Shown in pieces: positions 5,750-30,373 of a DNA stretch of 64,000 nucleotides; positions within the stretch are counted from its first letter, which is position 1, and each line of letters opens with the position of its first letter. The notes below the pieces were generated by a model that worked only from the letters and a program-made list of their open reading frames with translations, did not search any database and had not been told where the DNA came from. Origin of the DNA: a virus; IMG/VR virus record IMGVR_UViG_3300046665_000434, positions 90,262 to 154,261 of that record, one strand, 5' to 3'. The position numbers and the translations under genes were made by a program.

Positions 5750-5789
5750 TTCAATGAAATTATCTACAGTCATACATAACGGAGGTGAC
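5750..5789 (+). promoter_or_regulatory. Putative phage (early) promoter, copy 1
   Basis: 32/40 identical to 22341-22380; both lie at the head of + strand accessory gene clusters. Confidence 0.65.
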
Positions 5790-5802: not shown

Positions 5803-5815
5803 GTCCGAGGAGGAC
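5803..5815 (+). promoter_or_regulatory. SD-containing hairpin (GTCC-GAGGA-GGAC variant)
   Basis: One of ten copies; compensatory stem variant. Confidence 0.7.
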
Positions 5816-5817
5816 TC

Positions 5818-6159
5818 ATGTCGTATTCTAATGCATTGAAAATCGGTGGTGTGCTGGTATTGGCTGCAATCGGTGTCGTAGCTGCTGTCAAAGCGTACCA
5901 CGAGAAAGAAGCCGCTTCTGAAGAGAAGCTAAAACCTCTCCAGACACTGGCCATGAAAGTAATGCTCAATAAACTCCTGGTGGAGATCAGCGAGCTGATC
6001 GTATCCAAACAGGTGATGCCGGATGACGATCTGTTTATCAGAGTCAGGGTGTTCAGGGATCTCGCCAAGGCCGACTATGTAGATCTCAGCCATCTTGACC
6101 TGTGTATGCTGGTTCAGGAAGCGCAGGGCATACTGTCCACACTCAAATCCATGCCTTAA
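5818..6159 (+). CDS. Small N-terminally membrane-anchored protein (paralog of 7203..7553)
   Basis: ATG 5818 right after the SD hairpin; hydrophobic N-terminus LKIGGVLVLAAIGVVAAVKAY. Confidence 0.75.
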   Translation: MSYSNALKIGGVLVLAAIGVVAAVKAYHEKEAASEEKLKPLQTLAMKVMLNKLLVEISELIVSKQVMPDDDLFIRVRVFRDLAKADYVDLSHLDLCMLVQEAQGILSTLKSMP

Positions 6160-6170
6160 TAGGAGGTTAC

Positions 6171-6626
6171 GTGAAGAATCCATTCAAACGTTACGCAACT
6201 ATATTCGATCGGTTGGCAGATAGTTTTCGAATCCGTACCTTTTCTCCTAAGGACGAGGTGAAGGACGTTGTAGAAATAGGCTTCGTTGAGGCATTAGGTA
6301 TATATCTTCACCACATCACGCGTGACCTTATTCGTCAAGGACATTCTGTAATGAGTGTCGTCGGTAAGGTCAAAGCCGCCAGAAGTGACGGTTGGGAAGA
6401 TGATATCGCCGCAATGATCAACGAGTATACCAGTCGCTCTACGGTCACGTATCAGCGCTATCCGGCCGGTGTCATGTCGATAGGTATCCCTCAACAAACT
6501 TATCGCTTGAAGCTGGTGCGTACGGTGAAGAAACCGGCTTCGGATTTCGCGGGAGATATGACCCGCGGAAAAGTAGAACTGTCGGAACAAGTGCTGACCA
6601 CTATCAAAAATTATTCGTCGGACTGA
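6171..6626 (+). CDS. Hypothetical protein
   Basis: AGGAGG at 6161 then in-frame GTG at 6171. Confidence 0.7.
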   Translation: MKNPFKRYATIFDRLADSFRIRTFSPKDEVKDVVEIGFVEALGIYLHHITRDLIRQGHSVMSVVGKVKAARSDGWEDDIAAMINEYTSRSTVTYQRYPAGVMSIGIPQQTYRLKLVRTVKKPASDFAGDMTRGKVELSEQVLTTIKNYSSD

Positions 6627-6636
6627 TCCGACTAAA

Positions 6637-6650
6637 GACCGTAGGAGGTC
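6637..6650 (+). promoter_or_regulatory. SD-containing hairpin GACC-GTAGGA-GGTC
   Basis: Repeat motif, 3 nt before ATG. Confidence 0.7.
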
Positions 6651-6653
6651 ATC

Positions 6654-7172
6654 ATGTTTCTTGTTTCTCGCAGTATCTTCAATCAACTCAAATCTGATTA
6701 TCTCGACCTCCCTCTCGGCGCCATCGATGAAGGTCTGCGTAACAGCATCCGTAAGATCAACATGATGAACGGTATAGTGACGTTCGCTTGCTGTGAAAGC
6801 CATTTGGAGACTGAGGAGTTTCCAGAATACGGTAGTCAATTCTACGTCGCCTTCCGGGCTAGCACTAACTACGGTATCCTTAAAATAAAGAGCATCTACA
6901 AAGGCTTTGCAGGACAGCTGGAGTTGATGGTCCCAAACCCTTATCTTGAGAATGAGTTATCGTGGACCAACCCGCGACTCGAGATCGATGAGACCTGTCA
7001 AGTTGATGGTACTGATCGACAATGGTCATTAGTGATCAGAGTAACCGTATTCAGCCATTCTTTCAAGGAAGTAGTCCTTAAAGCTTTCGAGAATGCTGTC
7101 AATAAAGAGCTGGTGCGGGACATCCCAAAAACAACTGCGGCTAAGCCGCGCCGATTCAGGCCGTCTTTCTAA
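6654..7172 (+). CDS. Hypothetical protein with TYW3-like N-terminal motif
   Basis: IDEGLRNSIRKIN...VTFACCESH resembles the ID..I..lv..IN....T.ssCsG motif. Confidence 0.6.
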   Translation: MFLVSRSIFNQLKSDYLDLPLGAIDEGLRNSIRKINMMNGIVTFACCESHLETEEFPEYGSQFYVAFRASTNYGILKIKSIYKGFAGQLELMVPNPYLENELSWTNPRLEIDETCQVDGTDRQWSLVIRVTVFSHSFKEVVLKAFENAVNKELVRDIPKTTAAKPRRFRPSF

Positions 7173-7186
7173 ATCTTACTGTCATC

Positions 7187-7199
7187 GACCGAGGAGGTC
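7187..7199 (+). promoter_or_regulatory. SD-containing hairpin GACC-GAGGA-GGTC
   Basis: Repeat motif, 3 nt before ATG. Confidence 0.7.
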
Positions 7200-7202
7200 A
7201 TT

Positions 7203-7553
7203 ATGTCGCTTTATAACGTATTGAAAGTTGGTGCTGTACTGGCAGTTGCTGGCGCTGCCGGCTACATTGGTTACAAAGCCATAGTGGCCTATAAAGAAGA
7301 ACAGGAGTATCAGGCAAAGCAAGAAGAAATCAACGACATTAAAACACAGTTAGTGTTAAAAATGATGTCCATCCGCCTGATCGTTTCTTTCAACGGTTCT
7401 GAATGGCTGGAGATTAAAGATCCTCAGGCTTACAGTTATTACGTAGATCTTGTCAACGCCCGCAGCACCGGTTACCGTGGATTCAGCCATGCTGACTTCA
7501 AGCTCCTCTTGTACAAGCTGGAATACGTGTACGCAGTAGTTACTGCACGGTAA
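7203..7553 (+). CDS. Small N-terminally membrane-anchored protein (paralog of 5818..6159)
   Basis: MSLYNVLKVGAVLAVAGAAGYIGYKAI followed by a charged helix. Confidence 0.8.
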   Translation: MSLYNVLKVGAVLAVAGAAGYIGYKAIVAYKEEQEYQAKQEEINDIKTQLVLKMMSIRLIVSFNGSEWLEIKDPQAYSYYVDLVNARSTGYRGFSHADFKLLLYKLEYVYAVVTAR

Positions 7554-7555
7554 TA

Positions 7556-7597
7556 TACAGGAGAGGCGTAAGCCTCTCCTGTACTCTTCTTTTTTTT
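7556..7597 (+). terminator. Intrinsic terminator
   Basis: TACAGGAGAGGC-GTAA-GCCTCTCCTGTA plus T tract. Confidence 0.85.
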
Positions 7598-7627
7598 GTT
7601 GTAATAGCTTACATTTGGTTTCAATAC

Positions 7628-7933
7628 TATGTAGAAGTACCCGTGGCTAATAGCCATTACAGTACAGCCATGCTCTTTAACAACTCGGTGTCAGTCACAG
7701 TAAGTGCTATCTCAGTACAGCTCCCTGATAATGACTCTCTAGCATAGCGGGTATCCAGCCCTGCATCTTAGCGCCTTTCTGGAACGATAAGCGCGCTCCA
7801 TTCGATCATGTACGAAATATCAAGTCGTTGAGCAGTAAGGGCGCTGCGCTCTGGCGATACACGACAAGGGTTGAGTCGGGTCTTTGGAAGAAACAAAGAA
7901 GTCATACGGCCCGGCCTTGCGCCGGGCTTTATG
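7628..7933 (+). ncRNA. Putative structured non-coding RNA B
   Basis: Lies between two terminators; TATG at 7628; nested long-range helices 7638-43/7748-53, 7756-62/7867-73, 7770-78/7837-45. Confidence 0.45.
7903..7933 (+). terminator. CATA..TATG-flanked hairpin terminator
   Basis: GCCCGGC-CTTGC-GCCGGGC-TTTATG. Confidence 0.65.
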
Positions 7934-7991
7934 CTGTATGTAAGTATTTATAATGACGAAGTACTTATGAACATCAGTGTAGACTTCCGCC

Positions 7992-8780
7992 ATGACAAAG
8001 ATCAACTACCCTATCCTTGGAGCAGAATCCATGAACCCAGACATCGATCGTCCTACACGGCCAACTTTAGCTGAAGCTATCGCAGCGATCACAAAGCCAG
8101 CGCCGTATTGGCCACAAGACCTCATCGTCAAAGTGGTATCGCTACCGTCGAAGATGGCCGCAGACGAGCAGTTGCGTGATGCGTTTATCAACGTAATCGA
8201 AAACTTGGCAACCAATATCAGTTCGTTCAGTACTGAGCGTGTATTGCGGCCAGCTAGTGTCGGCGATGATGTCCTTGAATTCTCCAATAACTTTAATGGC
8301 ATCACTGTCCACGCGCCGGAATACGAGAACAAACCCGTCCTGCGCATGTTGCGCCAGATCCAGAATCAGTACATGGTAGGTCGTAGTCTGTCCCAACTGG
8401 CAAGGGACCCTTTCGCACTGATTGCGTTCGAGCCGAACAAGACTCGTACCGACGTGATCGATGCCTGGTTCATTCCGTCGTTTTTCATCAGCACCCTGCC
8501 TGCACATATTTGCAGTAAGAGTATCAGATCCGCGGCCGATACCGTCATCGGCGGTGAAATTTATTCGTTCGATCTGTCCGGTGAAACCCTCCAGAGTGAT
8601 CTGATCAGCGATGTCGCGTCGAAGATGTACAAGTCTATGATGCTCACTCCGGAAGGTGAACAGACCAACTCTGAGTTCTCATGGCCAGGTGCGTTGAAAC
8701 AGCTGCTGCCTAACGGTAGTACTGATGTACTGAGTAACCGTATGCAAGGTTATTCGGAAGTCATCAAACAGGCAGAATAA
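7992..8780 (+). CDS. Hypothetical protein
   Basis: 262-aa ORF followed by a terminator; possible start at the downstream ATG after GGAG. Confidence 0.75.
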   Translation: MTKINYPILGAESMNPDIDRPTRPTLAEAIAAITKPAPYWPQDLIVKVVSLPSKMAADEQLRDAFINVIENLATNISSFSTERVLRPASVGDDVLEFSNNFNGITVHAPEYENKPVLRMLRQIQNQYMVGRSLSQLARDPFALIAFEPNKTRTDVIDAWFIPSFFISTLPAHICSKSIRSAADTVIGGEIYSFDLSGETLQSDLISDVASKMYKSMMLTPEGEQTNSEFSWPGALKQLLPNGSTDVLSNRMQGYSEVIKQAE

Positions 8781-8790
8781 CCTGATCCCT

Positions 8791-8821
8791 GCATAGGTCC
8801 GGCTACTGCCGGACTTTATGC
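8791..8821 (+). terminator. CATA..TATG-flanked hairpin terminator
   Basis: GCATAGGTCCGGC-TACT-GCCGGACTTTATGC. Confidence 0.7.
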
Positions 8822-8877
8822 CGTGTCATTTCTCACCAAACCGACTTATCTAATAGACAACTAATCGAGCATCTGAA

Positions 8878-9867
8878 ATGACTACATTTATCGTAATGAC
8901 TTATGAACGTTCTTATCATGCCCATCACCGTCACGCCAGCAGTGGCTTTATCGCGTTTGCTGTAGCTAGCGCCGATATATTGGACTATAAACGAACCATA
9001 GTCGATAGCCCTAGCCCTCACCTTACGAAACCTGACCATTTTATCGAGATGGAGTTAGGGTTTCCGCATGCGGTAAGACCATTTTTGAGTGAGCTGGTCG
9101 ACTCGTTCTTTCATCACAAAGACAGTGAACTATGGAAAATGTCGCAGTTCTTGGTGGTTGCTCAGTACGACCCGCAGAAAGACAAGATCGTCAATAAGCA
9201 AATTATCCCGCTGCGCGATATCAAGAAAGCATTTCTGCCGGAGCAACCGATTGACGATAAGTTTTCCAAAGTGGGGTTGGAGTTCCGTAACAACTTGAAC
9301 GAGGAAGATATCTCTATCGTAAAAGAGGTGGCGTTGAACCTCGACCTGAACGAACGGCTGCTCACAAAAGCCAGACGCTGGAATGCTGGAGATAACAAAC
9401 GCCTCGGCCAATTTCAGCTGGTGAAGAACCACTGCAAAATGATCGGTATTCGTCAAGCTCCATTCTCGGTCCACTCTTTAGATACCGATATCCATATTGA
9501 TCGGTTCAATTCGAAGAACATCGAATTGATGGAGACGTTCTTCAATAAACACGTCACTTCGATCGAATACGGTATCGGTGATTTGAGAAGCGCGAAACTC
9601 TTTTACGCCGGCCCTCTTACGGCAGAGATGGTCACTGGCATGGTGGAGTTGTTTAAACGTTCTGAATTCGACATCCTCTATTATCAAACCAATACCCTCG
9701 GTAATGAGGTCGTCGAAGCTGAGGTTCTGAATCTTAGTTCCGGTAGTTTTGGGATCCATGAACAGGCTGGGATGCCAGAGCGTGGCTTTGTTGATTTCCA
9801 CGCCCTCAGACATCCAAAAGGCGAAGGTGCGCTGCGATTCGCCGAACAACTCCACAACCAGCTGTAA
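8878..9867 (+). CDS. Hypothetical protein
   Basis: 329-aa ORF, no recognised motif. Confidence 0.7.
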   Translation: MTTFIVMTYERSYHAHHRHASSGFIAFAVASADILDYKRTIVDSPSPHLTKPDHFIEMELGFPHAVRPFLSELVDSFFHHKDSELWKMSQFLVVAQYDPQKDKIVNKQIIPLRDIKKAFLPEQPIDDKFSKVGLEFRNNLNEEDISIVKEVALNLDLNERLLTKARRWNAGDNKRLGQFQLVKNHCKMIGIRQAPFSVHSLDTDIHIDRFNSKNIELMETFFNKHVTSIEYGIGDLRSAKLFYAGPLTAEMVTGMVELFKRSEFDILYYQTNTLGNEVVEAEVLNLSSGSFGIHEQAGMPERGFVDFHALRHPKGEGALRFAEQLHNQL

Positions 9868-9890
9868 ATAATTACATGATGTCACCGTGA

Positions 9891-10288
9891 TATGTAAAAG
9901 GTCTATCACGGATCAGTTACCTCCTTTGGGGAGCGGTGTTGTAATTCCCCGTCTGGCCGACAACCGCTCTCACTTTTTATTCCTTGGGATCGTATTACGG
10001 TTCCTCAAGAACCCCGCCGCGTAGCGTATTTGCCCGCGCGCGGCTAGGTACTGCACCGCCTCACCCTATAGGTTGCAGTTACAGCCAGCGAAGGCTGGTG
10101 GACCTCGTATAGCGCTGTCGAATGCTGTTAGTTAATGGGGTGGTCTCTCACACTGAGCCGCCAGTTGTCGGTAGGCCGGGTTAAGGCTTGGTCGCCCAGT
10201 TCACCTTGACCTGATCTTGGTGTTCTACCTGAATCTATCGACAAGTCCTGCCTCTCCTGCCTCCTTAGGGAGGTGGGGGAGTTTTATG
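9891..10288 (+). ncRNA. Putative structured non-coding RNA C
   Basis: ~400 nt without a credible ORF; at least seven hairpins; end-to-end helix GATCAG 9911-16/CTGATC 10211-16; TATG at 9891; terminator 10252-10285. Confidence 0.6.
10252..10288 (+). terminator. Intrinsic terminator
   Basis: CTCTCCTGCCTCC-TTAG-GGAGGTGGGGGAG-TTTT. Confidence 0.7.
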
Positions 10289-10352
10289 CTGTTAGGGATA
10301 TGGTATGCAGTGGTAGCCTCCATTGTACCGCAACACTTTAAAGGACTGTCAC

Positions 10353-10877
10353 ATGAAACTCAATATCGCTCTGTCTGCTGTAGCGAACGTGCTGGGTGCT
10401 ATCAACGCTGCCAACACCGCTGTTAGCCTGGCCCTCACCGAAGCCCAGGTTACTTTCGCTGCACCAGCGGTAACTGCCGGCACTGCTGGCCGTAACACCT
10501 CCATTACCTTGACCGGCGTCAATGGCCAGGGCGTCGAAGGTTCTCGTACATTCTCCTACACCCGCCAATCCCTGGCTGCTGGTGCCGTGGCTTCGACTGC
10601 TCCGGCAAGCGTTACCACAGCGCCTGGCGATACCGAAGCAGCTTCGCTGACCAAGGTCGCTACTGCTCTGGGTCTGCTGGCTGGTGAGTTCACTTCGAGT
10701 GCGTTTACCGCTCCTGCGGACATGACCACTCCGGGCACCATCACTCTGACCGCCAACGCGGCCAGTCTGGTGTACACCGGGGCTCGTACGGTGGCTTTGA
10801 ATTTTCCTGACTCCGACGTAGACTTCGCCACCCTGGCGCCGACTACTGACCTGGACGGTTTCGATGCTGAAGCCTAA
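10353..10877 (+). CDS. Virion structural protein, member of the repeated-module family (probably high copy)
   Basis: AAGGA SD; Ala/Thr-rich; module LGAINAAN..VTFAAP..NTSITLT..G...FSYTR..L and DLDGF tail; codon usage like the capsid gene. Confidence 0.8.
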   Translation: MKLNIALSAVANVLGAINAANTAVSLALTEAQVTFAAPAVTAGTAGRNTSITLTGVNGQGVEGSRTFSYTRQSLAAGAVASTAPASVTTAPGDTEAASLTKVATALGLLAGEFTSSAFTAPADMTTPGTITLTANAASLVYTGARTVALNFPDSDVDFATLAPTTDLDGFDAEA

Positions 10878-10894
10878 GGCAGTTAGTTGATACA

Positions 10895-10928
10895 GCATAC
10901 AGCCCCGGCGAAAGCCGGGGCTGTATGC
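10895..10928. terminator. Bidirectional hairpin terminator
   Basis: GCATACAGCCCCGGC-GAAA-GCCGGGGCTGTATGC between convergent genes. Confidence 0.85.
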
Positions 10929-10941
10929 CGTTCGTGTTACA

Positions 10942-12780
10942 TCACGGGTTGTAATGCAGAATCATTCGATTCTGGAACCACGACCCTACCGTCGGCTCGA
11001 TACAAACGCATCGAGTGTACTTGGTCGAGTTAGCCTCAGGAACTGACGTACTCGGCAAGACGAAACGGAACCAGTTACAACCTCCGATACCGCCATCGAC
11101 CTTACTGTCGTTCATCGACCAGTTGGTCCTGTCAGTGTTGGCGTTCAACCAGTTGATAACCGCCGCTGCGGTAGTCGACGGATCGTTAGGCTTCCACCAA
11201 CCTCCAGTACCGAGTGCTTCGAGGTTGGTCTTGATAGCACTGGCATCGTACGCGTACAGGATGTCTCGGCCGATACGGAATACCGAACCTGGAACAAACA
11301 ACGAACTGGTCGACAATACCGTCAGGTTAAAACCAACCAGACCTGTGATAGTTGCATCAGCAACATCGAGAGTAGTCAGCGACAACCCGAACTTACTGTT
11401 GATCGCAGCCAGCGAAGTCCAGATGGTAGATCCCATCCCGCTGCCCGGAAGTGTCAGATCAACTTTGTTTATGAACGCAAGGTTGATCGGGAACCGTTTG
11501 AATTTAAGAGTTACAGCATTCTTAAACCCAGATGGCCTCAATGCCCTCACACTCACGGACGAGTTATACGTAGCATCTCCGGTAATTGTCTGAACCGACT
11601 CGAAGACTACACCGTTTGACTTGAACCCAGTACCGTACTGTTTGTTCAGCTGGGCCAGGAACGATGCCAGAGGCGTCAAGGAGAACGTCGGTTGGATAGG
11701 CGGTTTTGTGATCGCATAAGCCTGGACGTTACGAAGACGCATGATCTTACCAGCAGTGACTGGAGTGAACGTCAATGTGGTGGCGTCGACACTAGCAGCA
11801 GTCCATGCCGCACCATCAGGAGATGTCGGGAAAGTACCCAACGGCAAGTTGTACGTATATGCCGTAGGCATCGCTGTGGCTTTAGCCGTAGACGTCGAAC
11901 CATTGGTGGTCAACGTTGTGTTAACCGTAATCCCCGTCGAATCACCGGCCTGACCGCCCATGCCGAGGACGAGTGCATCGATCGTGTGGTTGGGTGGCAG
12001 GAACGTTGCCAAACTGACTGCCAGTGCTCCGGTATTCGTAGACTGGACAGCGGCTCCTGACGAAGGGAGTACCCAATTCAACGTGTCCAGAAGGGTCGTT
12101 GTATAGATGCCCGTCAAGGGTGCCCAAGCGGAACCTACTGCCGAATCAAGACACAGCGGAACCAGACGACGTGGTCCAATGCGACCGTTGAAGGTATCGC
12201 CAGTCACGTTGTCGTACAGCATGATATCTCGGAAGGAGCACCCGCCTGCATAGTTCGATGGTGAGAGCCTGAAAAACACACCGAAGTTACCAGCAGCGAA
12301 AGCGGTCTTTAGAGTAGCCGACAGTGCTTTACTGCGGACAAACACGTTATTGACGTATACCGAAACCGTCCCCGCTACCGTATCAAACACGTCTTCAATG
12401 TACGCGGTATCACCGACCGCGATGTTAGGACTGAAGTCAGAAACGATCAGGCCGCCATCCGCACTCCCAGTACCGTTGAAGTTCTGGTCAACCGACACCA
12501 TCGTGTGCGCTGGCAACAATGGCACAGCTTCGATGGTAACCCGATACGCCAGAGTGAAACTCGTAGGGTTAGTCATCAACCCCGTGAAGAGGATCGTCGC
12601 GTACGTATCGGTGGTCGAAGTTCCGGGCGGGGCGGTAATCGCCCCTCGGTTGTTAACCTGGAATCCTTTCCCGTTGCTAGGCTCTTGGGCATAGCGAGTG
12701 AATGCATAGCCGCTGGTTGCAAGCCAGGTATCCGTAACGTTCTTGACGCAATGGTCAAATTGAATTGCTGCACGTAACAT
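10942..12780 (-). CDS. Tail-fibre/virion protein: lectin-like N-region + family module + LHYN C-domain
   Basis: Beta-rich N-region shared with 13334 and 14360; C-terminus shared with 16386. Confidence 0.75.
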   Translation of the reverse strand: MLRAAIQFDHCVKNVTDTWLATSGYAFTRYAQEPSNGKGFQVNNRGAITAPPGTSTTDTYATILFTGLMTNPTSFTLAYRVTIEAVPLLPAHTMVSVDQNFNGTGSADGGLIVSDFSPNIAVGDTAYIEDVFDTVAGTVSVYVNNVFVRSKALSATLKTAFAAGNFGVFFRLSPSNYAGGCSFRDIMLYDNVTGDTFNGRIGPRRLVPLCLDSAVGSAWAPLTGIYTTTLLDTLNWVLPSSGAAVQSTNTGALAVSLATFLPPNHTIDALVLGMGGQAGDSTGITVNTTLTTNGSTSTAKATAMPTAYTYNLPLGTFPTSPDGAAWTAASVDATTLTFTPVTAGKIMRLRNVQAYAITKPPIQPTFSLTPLASFLAQLNKQYGTGFKSNGVVFESVQTITGDATYNSSVSVRALRPSGFKNAVTLKFKRFPINLAFINKVDLTLPGSGMGSTIWTSLAAINSKFGLSLTTLDVADATITGLVGFNLTVLSTSSLFVPGSVFRIGRDILYAYDASAIKTNLEALGTGGWWKPNDPSTTAAAVINWLNANTDRTNWSMNDSKVDGGIGGCNWFRFVLPSTSVPEANSTKYTRCVCIEPTVGSWFQNRMILHYNP

Positions 12781-12790
12781 AGTTCAGCTC

Positions 12791-13321
12791 CTAGGACCAG
12801 TCGAGGGTCGTACCGGTAATCACGGCGGTGATTGGTTTCAGCGCCATGCCTAGAACAATCGTCAGGCCGGGAATGAAGAAACGGCTGGTCGTCGCTGCGG
12901 TGAGCGTGATACTCTCGTCCGTACTGGCGATGGTAATGGGATTGATGTCATCAGATGTCAACGTCATCCCACTGGCCGTATTGAGCAACGGCAGCAATGA
13001 AGTCAGGTCTGTTGCAGAACTGAAATCGAAGTGAGATTTATCGTCGATGATCCGGCCGATGTCAACCCGATTGTACGGCAGCGTAATAGAGCCCTGGAGG
13101 TTCGATGTACCTGTAGCCGTCACCAACACCTGGCTGTTGTAGTTGGCATTCCCGGTGAGCACTGTAGGGGCTCCCAGCGTGAAGTCAGACGATGTCCGCG
13201 GAGACTTAGCCGCAGCAATGACCAAGTTCATCAAAGCGACCTGTCCAGTTACCCCTTTTGGCAGAACGGCTGGAGGAATACCGATGGCATAACCAACGAT
13301 GCTTCTGATGGCGATTGTCAT
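12791..13321 (-). CDS. Virion protein, family module only
   Basis: Closely matches the C-terminal ~170 aa of 14360..15859; own GGAGG SD. Confidence 0.8.
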   Translation of the reverse strand: MTIAIRSIVGYAIGIPPAVLPKGVTGQVALMNLVIAAAKSPRTSSDFTLGAPTVLTGNANYNSQVLVTATGTSNLQGSITLPYNRVDIGRIIDDKSHFDFSSATDLTSLLPLLNTASGMTLTSDDINPITIASTDESITLTAATTSRFFIPGLTIVLGMALKPITAVITGTTLDWS

Positions 13322-13333
13322 TTTTGTACCTCC

Positions 13334-14347: not shown

Positions 14348-14359
14348 ATCGACGCCCTC

Positions 14360-15859: not shown

Positions 15860-15879
15860 GTGTTTTCTCCACCGTTGGG

Positions 15880-16377: not shown

Positions 16378-16385
16378 CGTGCACG

Positions 16386-17321: not shown

Positions 17322-17326
17322 GGTGA

Positions 17327-18121: not shown

Positions 18122-18123
18122 GA

Positions 18124-18957: not shown

Positions 18958-18967
18958 AGTGACAACC

Positions 18968-19786: not shown

Positions 19787-19859
19787 GCGTTAACGCAATA
19801 AAGAATGAAGAGACAGGCCGAAACCCGTCTCTTCATCCGTTTGACCAGGATACCGGGTA

Positions 19860-20417
19860 TTACGGAGTAACAGGTTTGGCGCGAGGAACCACGGTCAGAC
19901 CATCCAGAGTTTGGTTGGTGATCACGGTTGCCAGGTCGATATCTTCGGCCTTCAGAATGAACGTCAGGCTGCCGCGATATGCCAGGGAATCAGCATCGGC
20001 CACCAGCTGTACAGCGTGTTCTTCGTTCAACTCACCGGTGAACGTCGGCAGAGGGCCGTCGACGATTTCGGAAGGGTCGATGTTGGTCAACAGCTGGGCG
20101 TTGATTTCCGGCAGCATGTCGGCGATGTTCACCGCGTTACCGACAGTGAAGACCAGTTCCATGTCGGTGCCATCAGCCCACTTGGTGTGCTCGGCCAGAT
20201 TTGGACGGTTGTACTGGACAGTCACCGCGCCAGTGTAGCCAGAACCTTCTTTGGCTGTGAAGGTAATGGTGGTGTTCTTCGGCGGATTAGTGCCGGTGGT
20301 TTCGATAGGTAGACCAATGTCGACCAGACCTTCGGTCAGGACTTTGCCATTGGTGATACCGGACGTGTTGACCAGATCGAGCAACAGCGCCTTCGAGGCT
20401 TTAGTGAAATCACTCAT
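19860..20417 (-). CDS. Virion protein, family module
   Basis: LLDLVN..NTTITFTA..YTGAVTVQYNR..TLDGL. Confidence 0.8.
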   Translation of the reverse strand: MSDFTKASKALLLDLVNTSGITNGKVLTEGLVDIGLPIETTGTNPPKNTTITFTAKEGSGYTGAVTVQYNRPNLAEHTKWADGTDMELVFTVGNAVNIADMLPEINAQLLTNIDPSEIVDGPLPTFTGELNEEHAVQLVADADSLAYRGSLTFILKAEDIDLATVITNQTLDGLTVVPRAKPVTP

Positions 20418-20488
20418 GGTAGATAGACTCGCATGGTTACAGTGAGGTGCCGCCAGAAGTGACGGTGTCTATTAGGTAGGCATAGGAT

Positions 20489-21031
20489 TTACGTCGGAGA
20501 AGGGGCTTCTCGTGGAACGTAAGTCAGGCCGTCCAGATCCAGGTTGGTAATGACAGTGCTCAGTTCGATCAGATCAGGTTTGATCGTCACGGTCAACGAA
20601 CCGATGTAGCACAATGAACCCGGTTTCGCAGTGACGGTCACATCGATCGGGGTATCGACATACGGAGGTACGTCACCGTCGGTGTAATCGTCGGAAGTCA
20701 GATTGACGCCGAGACGCTCGTTCAGAGTGACGACCACGTCGGCAATCTTCTTGTAGCTGTTCGGGTTGAGGCTGAGGGTGTTATCCGGAATCGCCAGATA
20801 CACATCGGCAATATCAGTAGTCAGGTCGAGTCGGTCGTAATTGACGTCGACAGTACCCTTGTACTTGGTCGAATCAGGCTTTGCAGTGACGGTCACCTTG
20901 GAGTTCTTGGCTCCGGTAGTTGTCGCCACGTTACTGTAGACCAACTCGGTGTCTTCGATAGTTTTACCGTTGACGCGGTTGATCATGTCAGTAATGACGA
21001 CGTGGGGGACCTTCGTTAGATCATCAGCCAT
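20489..21031 (-). CDS. Virion protein, family module
   Basis: NSKVTVTA..YKGTVDVNYDRLDL..DLDGL. Confidence 0.8.
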   Translation of the reverse strand: MADDLTKVPHVVITDMINRVNGKTIEDTELVYSNVATTTGAKNSKVTVTAKPDSTKYKGTVDVNYDRLDLTTDIADVYLAIPDNTLSLNPNSYKKIADVVVTLNERLGVNLTSDDYTDGDVPPYVDTPIDVTVTAKPGSLCYIGSLTVTIKPDLIELSTVITNLDLDGLTYVPREAPSPT

Positions 21032-21092
21032 GATGCAGCTCTCGTGTGGGTTTTAGTTAGGGGCGGTTATATCATCGTGAAGCGCATAGAGC

Positions 21093-21120
21093 CGTATGGA
21101 GAGGTACTCCTCTCCATACG
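21093..21120 (-). terminator. Hairpin terminator
   Basis: CGTATGGAGAGG-TACT-CCTCTCCATACG, 12-bp stem just after the stop at 21128. Confidence 0.65.
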
Positions 21121-21127
21121 TTAGGGC

Positions 21128-21664
21128 TTATGCTGGCGGGGAGTACGTCAGGCCAGACAGATTCGGAATAGTGATCAGTGTTGCCAGATCCACCAGACTC
21201 CTGGTAACCTTGAGTGTCAGCTGACCCAAGTACACTACCGAGTTCGGCCGCATCACCAAATCAACGCTTACGAAGTCTTCATCATCGCCACTCAATGCAG
21301 GCAATGTTTGTTCGATGATCTTGTCAGCGGTGATGTTGGTGTTCAGACGTTCATTCAACTCAGGCAACAGATCAGACAGGACCGTGTACTCGCCTTTATC
21401 GAACGTCAGGATAGACGGCGCATTAGGCGGTATGAAGTCTATCAACCGTACGCGGTTATAATAGAACGAGGTGCTGTCCCGAAAGCCTAAGCCTGGGATA
21501 GCAGTCGCCATGATCACCGTGTTGCGATTCACAGTCGGAAGCGGATTGAACGTGGTCGGCGTACCGAAGGTTACCTGCGCAGAACTTAGGGGTTTGTTGC
21601 CATTGTCGTTACGGATGAGGTCGATGAGAACATCCACCTCACTTCGTGTGTAATCGATATCCAT
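21128..21664 (-). CDS. Virion protein, family module
   Basis: Start reassigned to MDIDYTRS (21664); LIDLIRNDN..VTFGTP..YYNRVRL..NLSGL. Confidence 0.8.
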   Translation of the reverse strand: MDIDYTRSEVDVLIDLIRNDNGNKPLSSAQVTFGTPTTFNPLPTVNRNTVIMATAIPGLGFRDSTSFYYNRVRLIDFIPPNAPSILTFDKGEYTVLSDLLPELNERLNTNITADKIIEQTLPALSGDDEDFVSVDLVMRPNSVVYLGQLTLKVTRSLVDLATLITIPNLSGLTYSPPA

Positions 21665-21701
21665 ACACGCATACTCAGCTGAAGGGCATATAGGAAGAGG
21701 T

Positions 21702-22298
21702 CTACGCCGGGTCGAATGCGGAGAGGTTGGTGACAGGCGCGAGGTTCGCAAAATCTCTGGCTACCAACTCATCATAATTGCCGCCATCAGTCGGCTCGGT
21801 CGCCCCAGGCGCTGTAAGGCCATTCAGGACGTTGTTAGGGAATTGGGCTGCCAACGATAGCGAACCTTCCACAACGTTGATCTGAAGCGTCCCTATCCAG
21901 ACGTAGGACTGATCGATAGGTGTGATCGTTGCAACACTTCCATCGAAGGTATAAGTCTTGACCTCTTCATAACCCAAGGGTAGGTTGTACTTAGTGCGCA
22001 GAGCGTACATGATGGAGGCGTAAGTAGGCTCGCCGTCGAGTTCGACAGTTACGTCATCGACACCGATTTCATGAAACGCTTCAGTGAGGTCATGGCGTTT
22101 GTAATAGTAGACTTGGGAGCCTTCTATCTGTGTGCCAAACGCGGTGCCCATCACGGCGGTGTTCATGCCATCATCAAACACTCCAGGATATAACTCCGTA
22201 AACCTGAGGTTGGAAGCATCTAGAAAGACGCCGTATTCCTCAAGTATTGCGCTATTCGTTGTACGAATCATGTCGTACAGTAGTTCAACACCTGCCAT
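21702..22298 (-). CDS. Virion protein, family module
   Basis: NTAVMGTA..EGSQVYYYKRHDL..SYVWIG..VLNGL. Confidence 0.8.
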   Translation of the reverse strand: MAGVELLYDMIRTTNSAILEEYGVFLDASNLRFTELYPGVFDDGMNTAVMGTAFGTQIEGSQVYYYKRHDLTEAFHEIGVDDVTVELDGEPTYASIMYALRTKYNLPLGYEEVKTYTFDGSVATITPIDQSYVWIGTLQINVVEGSLSLAAQFPNNVLNGLTAPGATEPTDGGNYDELVARDFANLAPVTNLSAFDPA

Positions 22299-22340
22299 AT
22301 CGACACCTGTTCTGTGGGCTGATCCCTACATTATTCGTTA

Positions 22341-22380
22341 TTCATTGAAAACATTTACAGTCATACATAGTGAAGGTGAA
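22341..22380 (+). promoter_or_regulatory. Putative phage (early) promoter, copy 2
   Basis: 32/40 identical to 5750-5789; sits in a divergent intergenic gap. Confidence 0.65.
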
Positions 22381-22392
22381 TCCACAACCAGC

Positions 22393-22406
22393 GACCGTAG
22401 GAGGTC
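22393..22406 (+). promoter_or_regulatory. SD-containing hairpin GACC-GTAGGA-GGTC
   Basis: Repeat motif, 3 nt before ATG. Confidence 0.7.
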
Positions 22407-22409
22407 ATC

Positions 22410-23006
22410 ATGGATTATTCAGCAATCAACCACGTCATCTATCGGATCAAATTGCCGAAAGAGATGTTCGTTATCGGTGGCACATTCGCTGCCGGTCTGA
22501 CGGAACCTAGCCTGGCAAAGGCGATGGGTGGTGGTGGCGAGCAGATTAAACTGTTCGTCTCGTCGAGCAACTTCGAAGTGTTGAAAAACTACACTCCGGA
22601 TGTTCCTCGAGCTGTTCTGACCGTGGAGGACGATCAGATCAGTTTGCGCGATGGACACATGCACATTGTGTTCCATCGGGGACTTCCTCAATCCTGGGTT
22701 AACGAGAGTGGTTACCAGGTCCAACATCCAGTGCCTCTCAAGCACTGGCTCGACACCAACGGCTATGAAAGCTGGGCGGTGTTGATGCAAGACACTCCAT
22801 TCGAAAAACGGATGGAGGGTTGGGTGTTGACGGAGGAGGAGGCTGTATTCAAGGAAGAATGCTCCCGCCATGACTGGTATTCCGATTACTCCGACGACTT
22901 CAGTGTCGTCAAGAACGGAAAGGTAGGACTTAATGTTCTACTGGCCCGTCGGGATGTAATCGGCGGTAAGGCGCGCGAGATCTTCGCGCACTACTCCAAC
23001 CGGTAA
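22410..23006 (+). CDS. Hypothetical protein with C-terminal HDWYxxYSDD phage motif
   Basis: HDWYSDYSDDFSV motif recurs in small phage proteins; N-terminus FVIGG weakly resembles a nucleotidyltransferase. Confidence 0.75.
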   Translation: MDYSAINHVIYRIKLPKEMFVIGGTFAAGLTEPSLAKAMGGGGEQIKLFVSSSNFEVLKNYTPDVPRAVLTVEDDQISLRDGHMHIVFHRGLPQSWVNESGYQVQHPVPLKHWLDTNGYESWAVLMQDTPFEKRMEGWVLTEEEAVFKEECSRHDWYSDYSDDFSVVKNGKVGLNVLLARRDVIGGKAREIFAHYSNR

Positions 23007-23070
23007 GGTGGGGAAGGAGGGAGTGAAAGCTCCCTCTTATTTTCTAACAGAATCCGAGGACGATAGATCA

Positions 23071-23565
23071 ATGAATATTGATAGTAAATCAAATATTAAG
23101 TTCAGCCGTAATTTACAATTTGTAGGCATCGATCATCCGTGCGTCTACTCTCGACTCCATACTCCGCCGGCGAACAACATTCCGGTGACTCTGGAAATTA
23201 CCGACGACAGGGATGATCAGATATCTGTGAAGGGTGAACTCTGGGTTTCTTTGGATTTCATCGGGGACGATGTGTTAGATTCGGTTGCAGTTAGGCAACG
23301 TATCTACATGTCAGTGCAAAATTTCTTCGGCGCGAGTAAATTTCTCGGCCGGGTAAAAATACGGTACGCTGATCAGCATCAATCTTCCAGTCAGCCTGAC
23401 GACGCAGATGATGAGTTCTGGGACCACCGCAGCACCTACGAGTCCATCGCTCTACTGGCGGCGCAGCTGGCTAAGGTCGATCCTAAAGACTTCCTTAAAA
23501 CGGAAGACTCGAAGATCTTAAATAAAGCGCTCGGCGAACTCTGTTTCCACGCCGCGTTGTCTTAA
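23071..23565 (+). CDS. Hypothetical protein
   Basis: ATG 23071 after a degenerate motif ATCCGAGGACGAT. Confidence 0.65.
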   Translation: MNIDSKSNIKFSRNLQFVGIDHPCVYSRLHTPPANNIPVTLEITDDRDDQISVKGELWVSLDFIGDDVLDSVAVRQRIYMSVQNFFGASKFLGRVKIRYADQHQSSSQPDDADDEFWDHRSTYESIALLAAQLAKVDPKDFLKTEDSKILNKALGELCFHAALS

Positions 23566-23575
23566 CTCAATAAAC

Positions 23576-23588
23576 GACCGAGGAGGTC
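23576..23588 (+). promoter_or_regulatory. SD-containing hairpin GACC-GAGGA-GGTC
   Basis: Repeat motif. Confidence 0.7.
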
Positions 23589-23591
23589 ACC

Positions 23592-23966
23592 ATGCAACTC
23601 AATAATGACAGCGTCATTCAAATCGCTGATAAGCTTTGGTTCGTTATGGGACCAGACGATAAATGTCGAGAATTCACCAAATCGCTTAGCGGCGCTGAGT
23701 CGATCTACTGCGTGTCCGGTTACTTCGGCGGTTTGTCGTTAGATGTACCGCTTGGCCTGTATCGAGCTATTGGTAATTTCGTGATCGCGGATGTTGTCGA
23801 CGAAGTTGACGCATCGATCCACTTCGCCAACCTCAAGCTGATCAAAAGCATGTTGGGAAATAAGTTGATTGAAAATACAACTACCCGAATGACCGTTGAT
23901 TATCTTTTCGTCAGTCGTGACTGTCCTGTTTTAGAGCGGGGCGAGCCTGGTTTCTATTGTTCTTAA
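23592..23966 (+). CDS. Hypothetical protein
   Basis: ORF preceded by the SD hairpin. Confidence 0.75.
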   Translation: MQLNNDSVIQIADKLWFVMGPDDKCREFTKSLSGAESIYCVSGYFGGLSLDVPLGLYRAIGNFVIADVVDEVDASIHFANLKLIKSMLGNKLIENTTTRMTVDYLFVSRDCPVLERGEPGFYCS

Positions 23967-23967
23967 C

Positions 23968-23980
23968 GTCCGAGGAGGAC
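23968..23980 (+). promoter_or_regulatory. SD-containing hairpin (GTCC-GAGGA-GGAC variant)
   Basis: Compensatory stem variant. Confidence 0.7.
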
Positions 23981-24811
23981 ATGATGAAAAAGTCACAACG
24001 CAACAAACCCAATGCTTCTCAAGGTACACCATGTCTCGTCATCTTTGACGAGTTTGCTAAACTACAGGCGAAGATTGCTGCCTTCCAACCGAAATACATT
24101 GTGGCGTATGAACTGCTGAGCTTCTTGCCGCACAGCTTGATCGAGCGTATCCACAACGAATGTAAGGGAAATGATCTCGCTCACCAGCCTGATCATGTCT
24201 TCGGTGTTGTCCGTCAGGTGGATCGGATTCTCACTACCTTTCCACAATACGAGCATTATCGCAAGGTGTTGCTCGGCGCGGCGCTGCTCCACGATGTCAA
24301 GTGTCACGTCAACCGTGATATCCATCACGTCCTGGCTGCGCAGTCTGTCGATGCGTACTACGGCAACATCGGCGTCTACGATATCCATGAGCTGGAGTTG
24401 ATCAAACTCTGCATCCTGGAACATCGTGCGTCGTTTAAAGGCGTACGTACTGGCCCGATTACTGAGATCATGGCTGCTGCTGATCGAGGTATTCCTGACG
24501 TGATGCGCTTCTTGCAGCGCGCTGTGTTGTTTCGCATCAGTAACGAGGGGATCACTCCCGATAACGTTACCGATGTAATCATTGAGCGACAGGTCAATAG
24601 TGCTGTCGAGCACTTGATCGATAAGTACGGTTCAAACGGGTACGCTTGGAAAAATGAATCCAAGTTCACGACCTGGGTAATGCGTGATCACATCGCCTCG
24701 TTTATCGAGACGCTTACGGACTTTACGCCTGAGGTTATCGCTAGCGGTATTCAGCGGTATCCCGGTTGGCTTAAAGAAGCCTATAAACCCACACACGAGA
24801 CTCCATCATGA
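23981..24811 (+). CDS. HD-domain metal-dependent phosphohydrolase
   Basis: HQPDHV, ALLHDV, HH, EH, AAADR; start 23981 or 23984. Confidence 0.8.
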   Translation: MMKKSQRNKPNASQGTPCLVIFDEFAKLQAKIAAFQPKYIVAYELLSFLPHSLIERIHNECKGNDLAHQPDHVFGVVRQVDRILTTFPQYEHYRKVLLGAALLHDVKCHVNRDIHHVLAAQSVDAYYGNIGVYDIHELELIKLCILEHRASFKGVRTGPITEIMAAADRGIPDVMRFLQRAVLFRISNEGITPDNVTDVIIERQVNSAVEHLIDKYGSNGYAWKNESKFTTWVMRDHIASFIETLTDFTPEVIASGIQRYPGWLKEAYKPTHETPS

Positions 24812-25161
24812 GTAGCGTCAAAATTGTAGTAATGGGTAATCCACTTATCCTGACTCTATCTACCGTGACTCCTGTTGGCCAGCACCGGATTGGTTCGGTG
24901 CGGGTGGAGTTTGATCATGGCGAACCAATCCATGTCCGTGTCTACGGACATGTGCGTATCTTTGAGAACGCCAAACTCCGTGCTCGCTTTGAGACGGACC
25001 TGCGCAAGTACTGCGAGAACCCGGCAGTGCTCGAACAGATCATCCCGTACAACGGTAGCCTCGCAAAGGCTCGTCGATTCAATCCATCCAAAACCCAAGT
25101 AAATGAACGTGACTGGTATAAAGGCACAAAGAAGGGCCTCGCAGCCGTCATCGTTAGCTGA
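24808..25161 (+). CDS. Hypothetical protein
   Basis: ATGA overlap with the HD gene. Confidence 0.65.
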   Translation: MSSVKIVVMGNPLILTLSTVTPVGQHRIGSVRVEFDHGEPIHVRVYGHVRIFENAKLRARFETDLRKYCENPAVLEQIIPYNGSLAKARRFNPSKTQVNERDWYKGTKKGLAAVIVS

Positions 25162-25176
25162 GCATAACACCCGAAA

Positions 25177-25189
25177 GACCGAGGAGGTC
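25177..25189 (+). promoter_or_regulatory. SD-containing hairpin GACC-GAGGA-GGTC
   Basis: Repeat motif. Confidence 0.7.
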
Positions 25190-25192
25190 ACT

Positions 25193-25651
25193 GTGTCGTA
25201 TCGAATCTCTCCAGCAACAGCAGAACTTTTGCTTTCAATTAGTCAGAAAGGTATTCGTCTGACTAACAGCGCTGACATTCAGTTAGCTGGGAACGCAGAG
25301 GTGATCCTTAAATCAGGTAAAGAGTTTATCGTCGGTGTCGATAGCGGCACTCTTTACCTGATCGATATTGTTGACGATCAGCCGTTCTTCATCTCTGACG
25401 CGACTCACTGGGGTGAATTGCAGGGCGTCTGGTCGCATTACTTTAATTTAGTCGCTATGACTAATTCGTCCGATCCGTTAGGACCTATCTGGTTCGAGTA
25501 CGATGATCCTGAGATCTGCCGATTTGACGGACTATCTCACGCCGAAGCCATACGTCAAGATCAATTGGTGATGTCGGCACACAAACAAATCGAACCGCTG
25601 CCTAAACAGGTTCACCGTCAAGCTGACAAACTGTCTATCCAGCATCACTAA
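25193..25651 (+). CDS. Hypothetical protein
   Basis: In-frame GTG at 25193 right after the SD hairpin. Confidence 0.7.
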   Translation: MSYRISPATAELLLSISQKGIRLTNSADIQLAGNAEVILKSGKEFIVGVDSGTLYLIDIVDDQPFFISDATHWGELQGVWSHYFNLVAMTNSSDPLGPIWFEYDDPEICRFDGLSHAEAIRQDQLVMSAHKQIEPLPKQVHRQADKLSIQHH

Positions 25652-25667
25652 TCGGTATACCCACATC

Positions 25668-25680
25668 GACCGAGGAGGTC
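25668..25680 (+). promoter_or_regulatory. SD-containing hairpin GACC-GAGGA-GGTC
   Basis: Repeat motif. Confidence 0.7.
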
Positions 25681-25682
25681 AC

Positions 25683-26186
25683 ATGAACATCATCAAACTC
25701 AATGCCCGTCGTGTAGTAGTCAGCGAAGCTGGCGTCACCAAAGTGATCAACCTGCCGTGTGGCGTCAGCTATTCCGAAGATCACCAGCGCTTTTACGCCT
25801 GGGTAATCGATCCTCAAACTGACAGCTGGAAGGGCAAGAGCTGGGGTGCCAAGAAGCATGGTGCTATCGAAGCCTTTGAGAACGCCGTAGAGGCTCGTGA
25901 AGAGTCGTTGTCGTATCTCTTGACCCGTCGTCTGCTTCCGCGCATTCGTCGTCCCTACGAGATCCGTGAGATCAGCGGGCTGTTTTACGTCAGAGATCCG
26001 TTGGCGAAGAAGTATCGGATGTTCTCAACGCTTGCACAAGCTGCGAAGTTCAACATCGATATCACTAAAGAGTGGATCGGTGAATACACGTTTGACAAGT
26101 TGACCATGATTCAGATCGAACGTAGCGGCTATGGCGTAAAAGCCGTCCTCGCTAAATACGACCATCGGCATGAGACTCGTCACTGA
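25683..26186 (+). CDS. Putative AP2-like DNA-binding protein
   Basis: GVSY....RFYAW.......KSWGAKKHG...AFENAVEARE matches the AP2 domain pattern. Confidence 0.6.
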   Translation: MNIIKLNARRVVVSEAGVTKVINLPCGVSYSEDHQRFYAWVIDPQTDSWKGKSWGAKKHGAIEAFENAVEAREESLSYLLTRRLLPRIRRPYEIREISGLFYVRDPLAKKYRMFSTLAQAAKFNIDITKEWIGEYTFDKLTMIQIERSGYGVKAVLAKYDHRHETRH

Positions 26187-26383
26187 TGACTCACTTCAGC
26201 ACGAACCAAGGTAATCACGGCTCAGCTGATGCACATCGTGAGCTCGACAATATCCAAGACCGTAAACGGAGAGAGCGCTTTGAACAGAAAGCAGTCATCG
26301 TCCTCAGTGTTGTCATCGGTGTCTTCAGTCTCCTCGGAGCTGTTCTCATCATCCAAGGCCTTCCTATCCTCTTCGAGGGGTAG
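26186..26383 (+). CDS. Small membrane protein
   Basis: TGATG overlap; C-terminal hydrophobic helix. Confidence 0.6.
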   Translation: MTHFSTNQGNHGSADAHRELDNIQDRKRRERFEQKAVIVLSVVIGVFSLLGAVLIIQGLPILFEG

Positions 26384-26393
26384 ACGTCGGGAG

Positions 26394-26567
26394 GTGTTAC
26401 CCATCCTGGCTTTGGCTGCGGTGTTTGTGGTAGCGTTGGACTTCTGTCTGATGCGAGACATCTCTGCGGCTAATACGCCTCCCTGCTTCGATTACAAGGG
26501 CCAAGCTGAAGCAGGGGTGATTGTAAACACCGAGGCTCTTCGAAACGTAGACCTGTGCGGGAAATGA
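26394..26567 (+). CDS. Possible small membrane or secreted protein
   Basis: In-frame GTG then hydrophobic LPILALAAVFVVAL; start uncertain. Confidence 0.35.
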   Translation: MLPILALAAVFVVALDFCLMRDISAANTPPCFDYKGQAEAGVIVNTEALRNVDLCGK

Positions 26568-26617
26568 GTCATGCCAAAAGTAATTGAACCGGGTAAGCGC
26601 TAGTTAATTACATCACC

Positions 26618-26631
26618 GACCGTAGGAGGTC
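26618..26631 (+). promoter_or_regulatory. SD-containing hairpin GACC-GTAGGA-GGTC
   Basis: Repeat motif. Confidence 0.7.
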
Positions 26632-26634
26632 ACT

Positions 26635-27015
26635 ATGAGTAGTAATGAAATCGTTATAGGTCGAGGTGGCATCACCCGACGTCAAAATGCCGTAATGGCG
26701 TATGAACTGTTCCTTACTGCGAAGCATCTGGAAGTAATGGAAGCTTTGCGGCCTCACTACAACGATAACTACGTCGACACCTTGATCTGTTCTGAGATCC
26801 TGTTGGAGTGGTTCGAGATCGTATCGTCGAATACGGCTGGATCTTTCGACGAGCTGTGGTGGGCATTTTACTACACTCGCATTGCGATGACCGATCCGAA
26901 GCTCGGCAACCTTTTAAGTGTTAGGGCGAGCGACTACTGTAATTTTACGGCTAAGGCTAGTGAGATCATGCGTTTCATCGCAAACCTTGACAACCGTATC
27001 TCTCAATACTGCTAA
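26635..27015 (+). CDS. Hypothetical protein
   Basis: ORF preceded by the SD hairpin. Confidence 0.75.
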   Translation: MSSNEIVIGRGGITRRQNAVMAYELFLTAKHLEVMEALRPHYNDNYVDTLICSEILLEWFEIVSSNTAGSFDELWWAFYYTRIAMTDPKLGNLLSVRASDYCNFTAKASEIMRFIANLDNRISQYC

Positions 27016-27020
27016 CCAAC

Positions 27021-27033
27021 GACCGAGGAGGTC
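27021..27033 (+). promoter_or_regulatory. SD-containing hairpin GACC-GAGGA-GGTC
   Basis: Repeat motif. Confidence 0.7.
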
Positions 27034-30332: not shown

Positions 30333-30373
30333 ACCGCCTCACCGCAGGCATTGCTAGTTGATGGGTGCATCTA

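Follow-up and report, generated by a model that had tools for sequence, protein, structure and literature searches.

The DNA analysed here (the window) is the final 64 kb of a 154,261-bp virus contig from IMG/VR (record IMGVR_UViG_3300046665_000434, completeness rating 62%). Its + strand carries two accessory gene clusters, organised as operon 1 and operon 2, each running from a promoter-like motif to a terminator-like hairpin (Table 1), and ten of their genes are preceded by a 13-14-nt hairpin that includes the Shine-Dalgarno (SD) sequence. On comparative sequence evidence, this hairpin is a real, conserved and covarying RNA element, specific to the probable early operons of an uncultured jumbo-phage clade. 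An earlier note, made from the letters of the window, had listed the ten sites and placed them 2-3 nt before start codons (0 or 3 nt at 23968); all ten proved exact, and the spacing was confirmed. They comprise five copies of GACCGAGGAGGTC, three of GACCGTAGGAGGTC and two of GTCCGAGGAGGAC, with an expectation of 0.00 in dinucleotide-preserving shuffles.

The pattern G[AT]CC-G(T)AGGA-GG[AT]C was searched in the whole contig and returned 12 copies, all on the + strand and all 0-4 nt before a start codon, the two beyond the window's ten lying at genome positions 53031 and 83959. Among the G(T)AGGAGG cores across the contig, none stands at a gene start with non-complementary flanks except GTAGGAGGT, a plain, hairpin-less ribosome site at genome position 84956. 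Most other contig genes have SDs of 4-5 nt, and the few strong SDs found elsewhere lie outside any hairpin. No structural or replication gene of the window carries the early-gene hairpin. Folded in isolation with ViennaRNA, the element forms a 4-bp stem closing a loop of 5 or 6 nt, at -4.5 to -4.8 kcal/mol; in 84 nt of native context the probability of all four pairs was at least 0.8 at 9 of the 12 sites, 0.48 at one and low at two. The products of the hairpin-preceded genes include HD-domain phosphohydrolase-like and tandem AP2-like proteins, the others being without a family, and the best E value in an all-against-all BLASTP of 19 cluster proteins was 0.13. Gene duplication was rejected as the origin of the repeats, as the proteins behind the ten sites are mutually unrelated.

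The capsid gene of the contig matched the PhiKZ major capsid family (PF25620) with E = 3e-138, and its large helicase, used as a query, matched phiKZ-like jumbo phages. Metagenomic relatives with 52-83% capsid identity are contigs of 240-267 kb, and a gene for a beta-like subunit of RNA polymerase is present in four complete ones. Capsid, helicase matches and the size and polymerase gene of the relatives together identify the contig as a fragment of an uncultured phiKZ-like jumbo phage. The cultured-phage collection held no DNA match to the contig, the nearest cultured capsid being that of Pseudomonas phage pPa_SNUABM_DT01 at 36% identity. Relatives were recovered via the capsid protein and via alignment of the AP2-like protein; a scan of IMG/VR with the DnaB-like helicase as query recovered none, and two further relatives with capsids about 50% identical yielded structural regions only, without the accessory clusters. 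At the syntenic loci of the relatives, the same + strand accessory cluster lies between tail-like DUF7941 genes and the DnaB-like helicase gene.

The element was found in every relative retrieved at 52-83% capsid identity, before many accessory-cluster genes; per genome, about 15-25 genes, small and probably early, begin with it. The core CCGNGGAGG was strand-biased in five IMG/VR genomes (four complete), with 14-20 copies on one strand versus 0-3 on the other, and the reversed pattern, used as a control, gave 0-4 copies. No strand-biased excess of the core was detected in phiKZ, DT01 or Xanthomonas phage LucasX, and a search of the window against Rfam 15 gave no match above gathering score. 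The earlier note had proposed selection on the 4-bp stem, and the relatives bear this out with nine stem types among 80 non-redundant elements, all Watson-Crick (GACC/GGTC, GTCC/GGAC, AGCC/GGCT, ACCC/GGGT, TCCC/GGGA, ATCC/GGAT, GACT/AGTC, ACCT/AGGT and GTTC/GAAC). These enclose the loops GAGGA, GTGGA, GCGGA and GTAGGA, replaced in a sister subclade by TTAGGA, TAAGGA, TTTGGA, TTCGGA and TAGGA.

To avoid circularity in the pairing test, sites were picked by the inner core alone (CC-N1-3-GGA-GG), blind to the outer pairs. Both outer pairs were Watson-Crick at 73 of 103 cores adjoining a start, versus 13 of 94 elsewhere. In the MAFFT alignment, the gap of the 14-nt variants fell within the stem, and pair counts were consequently restricted to the 58 ungapped 13-nt elements, an alignment pre-selected for pairing in which the covariation measures count and the percentage paired does not. 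Two-sided changes were found in three of the four pairs (34 cells), and the covariation score was 0.48 versus 0.14 in shuffles, with none of 500 shuffles reaching it and every slid register collapsing. In two genomes, sites with all four pairs numbered 38 on the gene strand versus 3 on the other, whereas sites with three of the four numbered 49 versus 47 (strand totals of a scan dominated by positions inside open reading frames); the lack of strand bias among the latter indicates that there is no population of decayed copies. A covariance model run over both strands of 322 kb gave 29 matches at E < 1; every one was on the coding strand, and two lay outside the training set.

The strongest single piece of evidence for a selected helix is the orthologous site before the AP2-like gene (window 25683-26186, about 170 aa), the only operon 2 gene present in every relative (37-57% identity). 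A hairpin stands there in 18 of 18 non-redundant lineages examined, with GACC, GTCC or ACCC stems and six loop variants, and on the protein tree its stem type has switched at least twice, most parsimoniously four times. Selection on the stem (5' NNCC / GGNN 3'), maintained by compensatory change, is thus strongly supported by the sequence comparison. Because loop length varies, different stems coexist unmixed and strand specificity is strict, base pairing in the transcript is the simplest account of the symmetry, rather than a DNA palindrome. As for the protein itself, its structural model (predicted local distance difference test score, pLDDT, 76) consists of two beta-sheet-plus-helix units, and 11 of 15 orthologues gave a weak Pfam AP2 match. 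A fold search returned weak matches to AP2-type proteins of the Toxoplasma mitoribosome and, with probability 0.96 and E = 0.008, to the tandem AP2 of Plasmodium SIP2; calling it an RNA binder was rejected, the fold matches being too weak.

Across the 80 non-redundant elements, the element proved to be the SD itself, the final GG of GGAGG forming the first two bases of its 3' arm. Start codons follow after 0-6 nt, most commonly 3, and are ATG in 73 of the 80. The loop reads G-N-GGA in the subclade of the window and U-N(N)-GGA in the sister subclade, so that its first base, G in 62 of 80 and otherwise U, is invariant within each subclade. Pairing with 16S ribosomal RNA (rRNA) fails to account for this base, because the one next to it varies freely. 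Opposite the A of GGA, a G could make a sheared pair and a U a Watson-Crick pair, which would leave just N-G-G or a tetraloop open. With the end of a strong SD taken up by the 3' arm and the first loop base able to pair with A, only about two of the G residues in the SD would be left unpaired. The bases flanking the stem are mostly C and A, a fifth pair is possible in only 5 of 80 elements, and the 12 nt upstream of the element contain 9% G.

A 13-nt motif, TACAGTCATACAT, usually followed by (A/T)TGAA 7 nt later, lies 35-50 nt before each hairpin cluster in the contig and in one complete relative, which holds about 25 copies of it. In both genomes the copies share one strand and precede small-gene operons; those of the contig are all on the + strand, including further ones at genome positions 28377, 51728, 52982, 59082, 80941, 83457 and 140147. 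A review of jumbo-phage transcription describes, in each phage, one highly conserved motif marking the early operons read by the virion polymerase (PMC7598289). The traits expected of a phiKZ-like jumbo phage with such operons are represented here: a phiKZ-type capsid, a multisubunit RNA polymerase, through the beta-like gene of four complete relatives, and a single highly conserved motif ahead of operons of small genes. By this analogy, TACAGTCATACAT is probably the early (virion RNA polymerase) promoter of the clade, and the hairpin-bearing operons are probably early operons.

Restriction of the hairpin to one gene class, as claimed in the earlier note, was supported, the class being the operons behind TACAGTCATACAT. 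The note would have given up its proposal for a motif equally common before all gene classes; using gene calls supplied with the assemblies, independent of the hairpin search, and a generous definition, we counted an SD hairpin at 37 of 87 accessory-cluster genes versus 12 of 155 others (Fisher p = 3e-10), and 8 of those 12 represent a single hairpin of another kind, conserved at the helicase gene. Within the clusters, the hairpin precedes 7 of 10 first cistrons and 27 of 47 genes more than 15 nt from the upstream stop, falling to 3 of 12 at 6-15 nt and 1 of 29 at overlapping or abutting starts. The element therefore is a start signal for de novo initiation, marking independently initiated cistrons. 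Among the internal hairpins, 17 of 25 begin 1-16 nt past the upstream stop, within reach of the terminating ribosome, and 8 of 25 lie beyond it.

Table 1 Promoter-like motifs, SD hairpins and terminator-like hairpins of the two operons, in window positions.
Feature	Positions	Strand	Sequence	Start codon and product	Remarks
Promoter-like motif	5765..5777	+	TACAGTCATACAT, GTGAC after 7 nt		Heads operon 1; probable early (virion RNA polymerase) promoter
SD hairpin	5803..5815	+	GTCC-GAGGA-GGAC	2 nt before ATG 5818; 113-aa membrane-like protein	First cistron of operon 1
SD hairpin	6637..6650	+	GACC-GTAGGA-GGTC	3 nt before ATG 6654; 172 aa	
SD hairpin	7187..7199	+	GACC-GAGGA-GGTC	3 nt before ATG 7203; 116 aa	
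Intrinsic-terminator-like hairpin	7556..7583	+	Hairpin and T run		End of operon 1
Promoter-like motif	22356..22368	+	TACAGTCATACAT, then N7-GTGAA		Heads operon 2
SD hairpin	22393..22406	+	GACC-GTAGGA-GGTC	3 nt before ATG 22410; 198 aa	First cistron of operon 2
SD hairpin	23576..23588	+	GACC-GAGGA-GGTC	3 nt before ATG 23592; 124 aa	
SD hairpin	23968..23980	+	GTCC-GAGGA-GGAC	Abuts ATG-ATG 23981/23984; HD-domain phosphohydrolase-like, 276 aa	1 nt past upstream stop
SD hairpin	25177..25189	+	GACC-GAGGA-GGTC	3 nt before GTG 25193; 152 aa	
SD hairpin	25668..25680	+	GACC-GAGGA-GGTC	2 nt before ATG 25683; 167-aa tandem AP2-like protein	
SD hairpin	26618..26631	+	GACC-GTAGGA-GGTC	3 nt before ATG 26635; 126 aa	
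SD hairpin	27021..27033	+	GACC-GAGGA-GGTC	3 nt before ATG 27037; 325 aa	
Intrinsic-terminator-like hairpin	28386..28413	+	Hairpin and T run		End of operon 2

Several further observations concern the operons and their surroundings. The terminator-like hairpins at 7556-7583, 28386-28413 and 10895-10928 have the outer stem words TACAG...CTGTA in common, and TACAG echoes the TACAG of the promoter motif TACAGTCATACAT. Long stretches without a confident open reading frame occur at 26384-26634 (251 nt, inside operon 2) and 7584-7991 (about 400 nt, after the terminator of operon 1). The gene at 23981-24811 matched PHROG 3921 as well as HD-domain or metal-dependent phosphohydrolase genes of jumbo phages, at 27-39% identity. 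In one relative (L016, 5960-5995), the SD hairpin GTCC-GTGGA-GGAC is immediately preceded by a second mini-hairpin, GTCC-GAATA-GGAC, identical to it in the stem and with a loop that is not an SD.

Other hairpins and palindromes accompany genes outside the two operons. The hairpin of the DnaB-like helicase gene, GCCT-GCGGTG-AGGC, lies at the ribosome-binding site (RBS) on the - strand (window 30336-30349), 3 nt before ATG, and is kept in all relatives, with the loop TCTGTG in L011 and L012. SD-embedding hairpins are therefore not confined to the early-gene family. A perfect 16-nt palindrome, CCAAAT-TGCA-ATTTGG, abuts the GGAG of the capsid gene at 31050-31065, and relatives have CCAAAT-AGCT-ATTTGG in its place, differing in the centre and keeping the palindrome; a late-gene operator is one possible role, an RNA hairpin another.

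Our best explanation, which we consider moderately probable, is that the element would serve as an RBS mini-hairpin gating the initiation of independently started cistrons in some probable early operons of this uncultured phiKZ-like clade. A cis effect of the RNA on translation initiation seems quite probable, while the idea that a dedicated trans-acting protein also reads it is put forward tentatively, such a reader being plausible because of the constraints on loop and length and the class specificity. Under the proposed gating mechanism, the weak helix (about -4.5 kcal/mol) would control access to the SD, and a 30S subunit would settle on the unstructured, G-poor leader immediately upstream and take hold of the SD once the helix opens by breathing; at most internal sites, a ribosome terminating 1-16 nt upstream could also melt it. 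The outcome would be a standard, context-independent, portable but throttled start signal for one gene class, and anything that stabilises or opens the helix could switch this class as a block.

Some of the findings weigh against the gating explanation. Against a 7-nt SD, a helix of 4 bp is a weak barrier, which makes the strength of any gating effect uncertain. Other genes have strong SDs outside any hairpin, so tempering a strong SD does not in itself call for one. The 8 of 25 internal sites noted above and all first cistrons are out of reach of a terminating ribosome, so coupling is not the general role. In addition, the early class rests on the analogy of the promoter motif, and several operons behind TACAGTCATACAT carry no hairpin.

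The first alternative is a dedicated translational operator, in which a phage-encoded or virion-delivered RNA-binding protein would recognise the hairpin shape and the G/U-N-GGA loop and shut off or switch on the whole class at a set time, in the way that T4 RegA or the MS2 coat protein acts on its targets. The subclade-specific first loop base, which 16S pairing leaves unexplained, would suit such a reader, as would a helix of fixed length whose extension is avoided in 75 of 80 elements, the conserved flanking C...A and the all-or-none, class-specific distribution. The coexistence of several stem sequences in one genome fits recognition of shape and loop, and the only conserved operon gene, encoding a nucleic-acid-binding protein of the tandem AP2-like type, is always hairpin-preceded, as in autoregulated repressors. 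We nevertheless regard this alternative as rather doubtful: AP2 domains are chiefly DNA binders, most of the conserved loop bases are simply the SD, and no known family of RNA-binding regulators was found in the phage genomes, where the contig was searched for CsrA (PF02599), RegA (PF01818), RegB (PF10715), S1 and S21 genes, five relatives (four complete) for CsrA, and the complete relatives for S1 and S21. A class-wide switch, with a phage protein reading shape and G/U-N-GGA loop and turning about 20 early leaders off or on together, strikes us as unlikely, and the AP2-like early protein, always linked to and preceded by the hairpin, would be a weak candidate for its reader.

A link to CsrA/RsmA was the leading idea of the earlier note; as a binding site for the host protein, the hairpins would either bring about 20 phage leaders under its repression or titrate it. 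By fold and alignment, the general architecture of CsrA targets is indeed there, with GGA looped out of a short hairpin that overlaps the SD, but the sequence context did not hold: the base before N-GGA is G or U and not the conserved A of A(N)GGA, GGA abuts the stem with no loop base after it, and the CANGGANG / RUACARGGAUGU context is absent. One hairpin is evident per leader, GGA being too common by chance for further sites to be counted meaningfully, and neither the contig nor the five relatives has a CsrA gene. We regard a CsrA/RsmA site as very unlikely. Processing or protection of the RNA is more improbable still, whether the hairpin is a cleavage mark for a phage or host endoribonuclease or protects the GGAG of early mRNAs against a RegB-like enzyme that cuts SDs. 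T4 RegB cleaves the GGAG of early SDs when it is single-stranded and is resisted by structured sites (PMC1702504), and GGAG is half paired here; however, no RegB homologue was found in the contig (PF10715), the A-rich single strand that RegB requires downstream (GGAGRAYARAA) is replaced by GUC/GAC within the stem, and 4 bp is too short a stem for RNase III. A role at the DNA level, as a palindromic protein site, a promoter for each gene or a microhomology junction for cassette shuffling, would agree with the position of the element at gene junctions in fast-changing accessory clusters, before unrelated genes. The conserved cassette-junction sequence suggested in the earlier note survives in this sense of position, at independently initiated cistrons, but the covariation favours RNA pairing over a recombination sequence. 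The strict strand specificity and asymmetric loop argue against the DNA level, and a loop of 5 or 6 nt leaves half-site spacing unfixed. Different complementary stems that coexist unmixed are explained by base pairing and not by dimer binding or microhomology, and a spacing of 0-6 nt to the start with a core perfectly complementary to the anti-SD fits an RBS rather than a promoter; we hold a DNA-level role to be extremely improbable.

Work on how jumbo phages regulate their genes has dealt almost entirely with their own RNA polymerases, and to our knowledge no translational signal specific to a gene class has been described in these phages. Across the whole of an uncultured clade, one gene class is now seen to be marked by an RNA fold with evolutionary support, and this fold is the first start-associated motif backed by covariation, the mycobacteriophage kind having been known since 2011 without a mechanism. 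Together with the promoter motif TACAGTCATACAT, the hairpin would allow gene starts and probable early operons to be annotated in these metagenomic phages directly from their DNA. At 13 nt it is also an easily synthesised object for probing how jumbo phages time or standardise early protein synthesis, and it could serve as a portable RBS part. A class-wide switch, if true, would give jumbo phages their first structure-defined translational regulon and would provide a working model for the start-associated sequence (SAS) of mycobacteriophages.

The closest described analogue is the SAS of cluster K mycobacteriophages; the element works like the SAS and is not a member of that family. The SAS is an asymmetric, SD-containing motif of 13 nt with symmetric outer bases GGG...CCC, located 3-7 nt before starts, mostly ATG, and present in 11-19 copies per genome, in one orientation, before non-structural genes only, which belong to unrelated families and are mostly separated from the upstream neighbour; its outer bases are not explained by 16S pairing (Pope et al. 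2011, PMC3203893). Its function was still not known in 2025 (PMC12699233). The element resembles the SAS in being an SD-containing 13-nt motif before starts, in one orientation, at non-structural genes and in more than ten copies per genome, with flanks that go beyond 16S pairing. It differs in sequence and host: the SAS is GGGATAGGAGCCC with two or fewer mismatches in a cluster K phage, the element GWCC-G(N)NGGA-GGWC in a phiKZ-like phage. Furthermore, the SAS is nearly invariant, without reported covariation, whereas the element covaries, and the SD would sit wholly in the loop of the SAS, whereas here the 3' arm belongs to the SD. About half of the SAS sites have an upstream 17-bp inverted repeat (extended SAS, ESAS), of which we saw no counterpart at our sites.

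The comparison extends to better understood systems. At the operators of T4 RegA, gp43 and gp32 and of the MS2 and Qbeta coat proteins, a short RNA at the RBS lets one factor control translation, RegA controlling a whole set of early mRNAs via unstructured AU-rich sites and the MS2 operator being a single site that contains the start codon. Unlike the RegA operator, the element is GC-rich and structured, with no RegA homologue in the contig, and in place of the single MS2 site there are about 20 near-identical hairpins per genome. Targets of CsrA/RsmA are alike in the GGA of a small hairpin loop overlapping the SD and unlike in the flanking consensus, the single sites here and the lack of a phage CsrA gene. 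In fourU and ROSE thermometers and in the MS2 coat and tisB standby hairpins, a weak helix pairs part of the SD and has to open for initiation; the element likewise has a weak local helix on part of the SD, with an adjacent single-stranded region that could be a standby site, but those systems serve a single gene with longer or several helices, whereas the 4-bp module described here recurs at genes of one class. Finally, lambda boxB, bound by N protein for antitermination, is a GNRNA pentaloop on a 5-bp stem that occurs once per operon in the nut site. The element shares with it a short GC-rich stem, a place in what are probably early transcripts and, as a fit of sequence alone, the pentaloops GAGGA, GUGGA and GCGGA, which agree with G-N-R-N-A, and is set apart from it by a 4-bp stem placed at each RBS.

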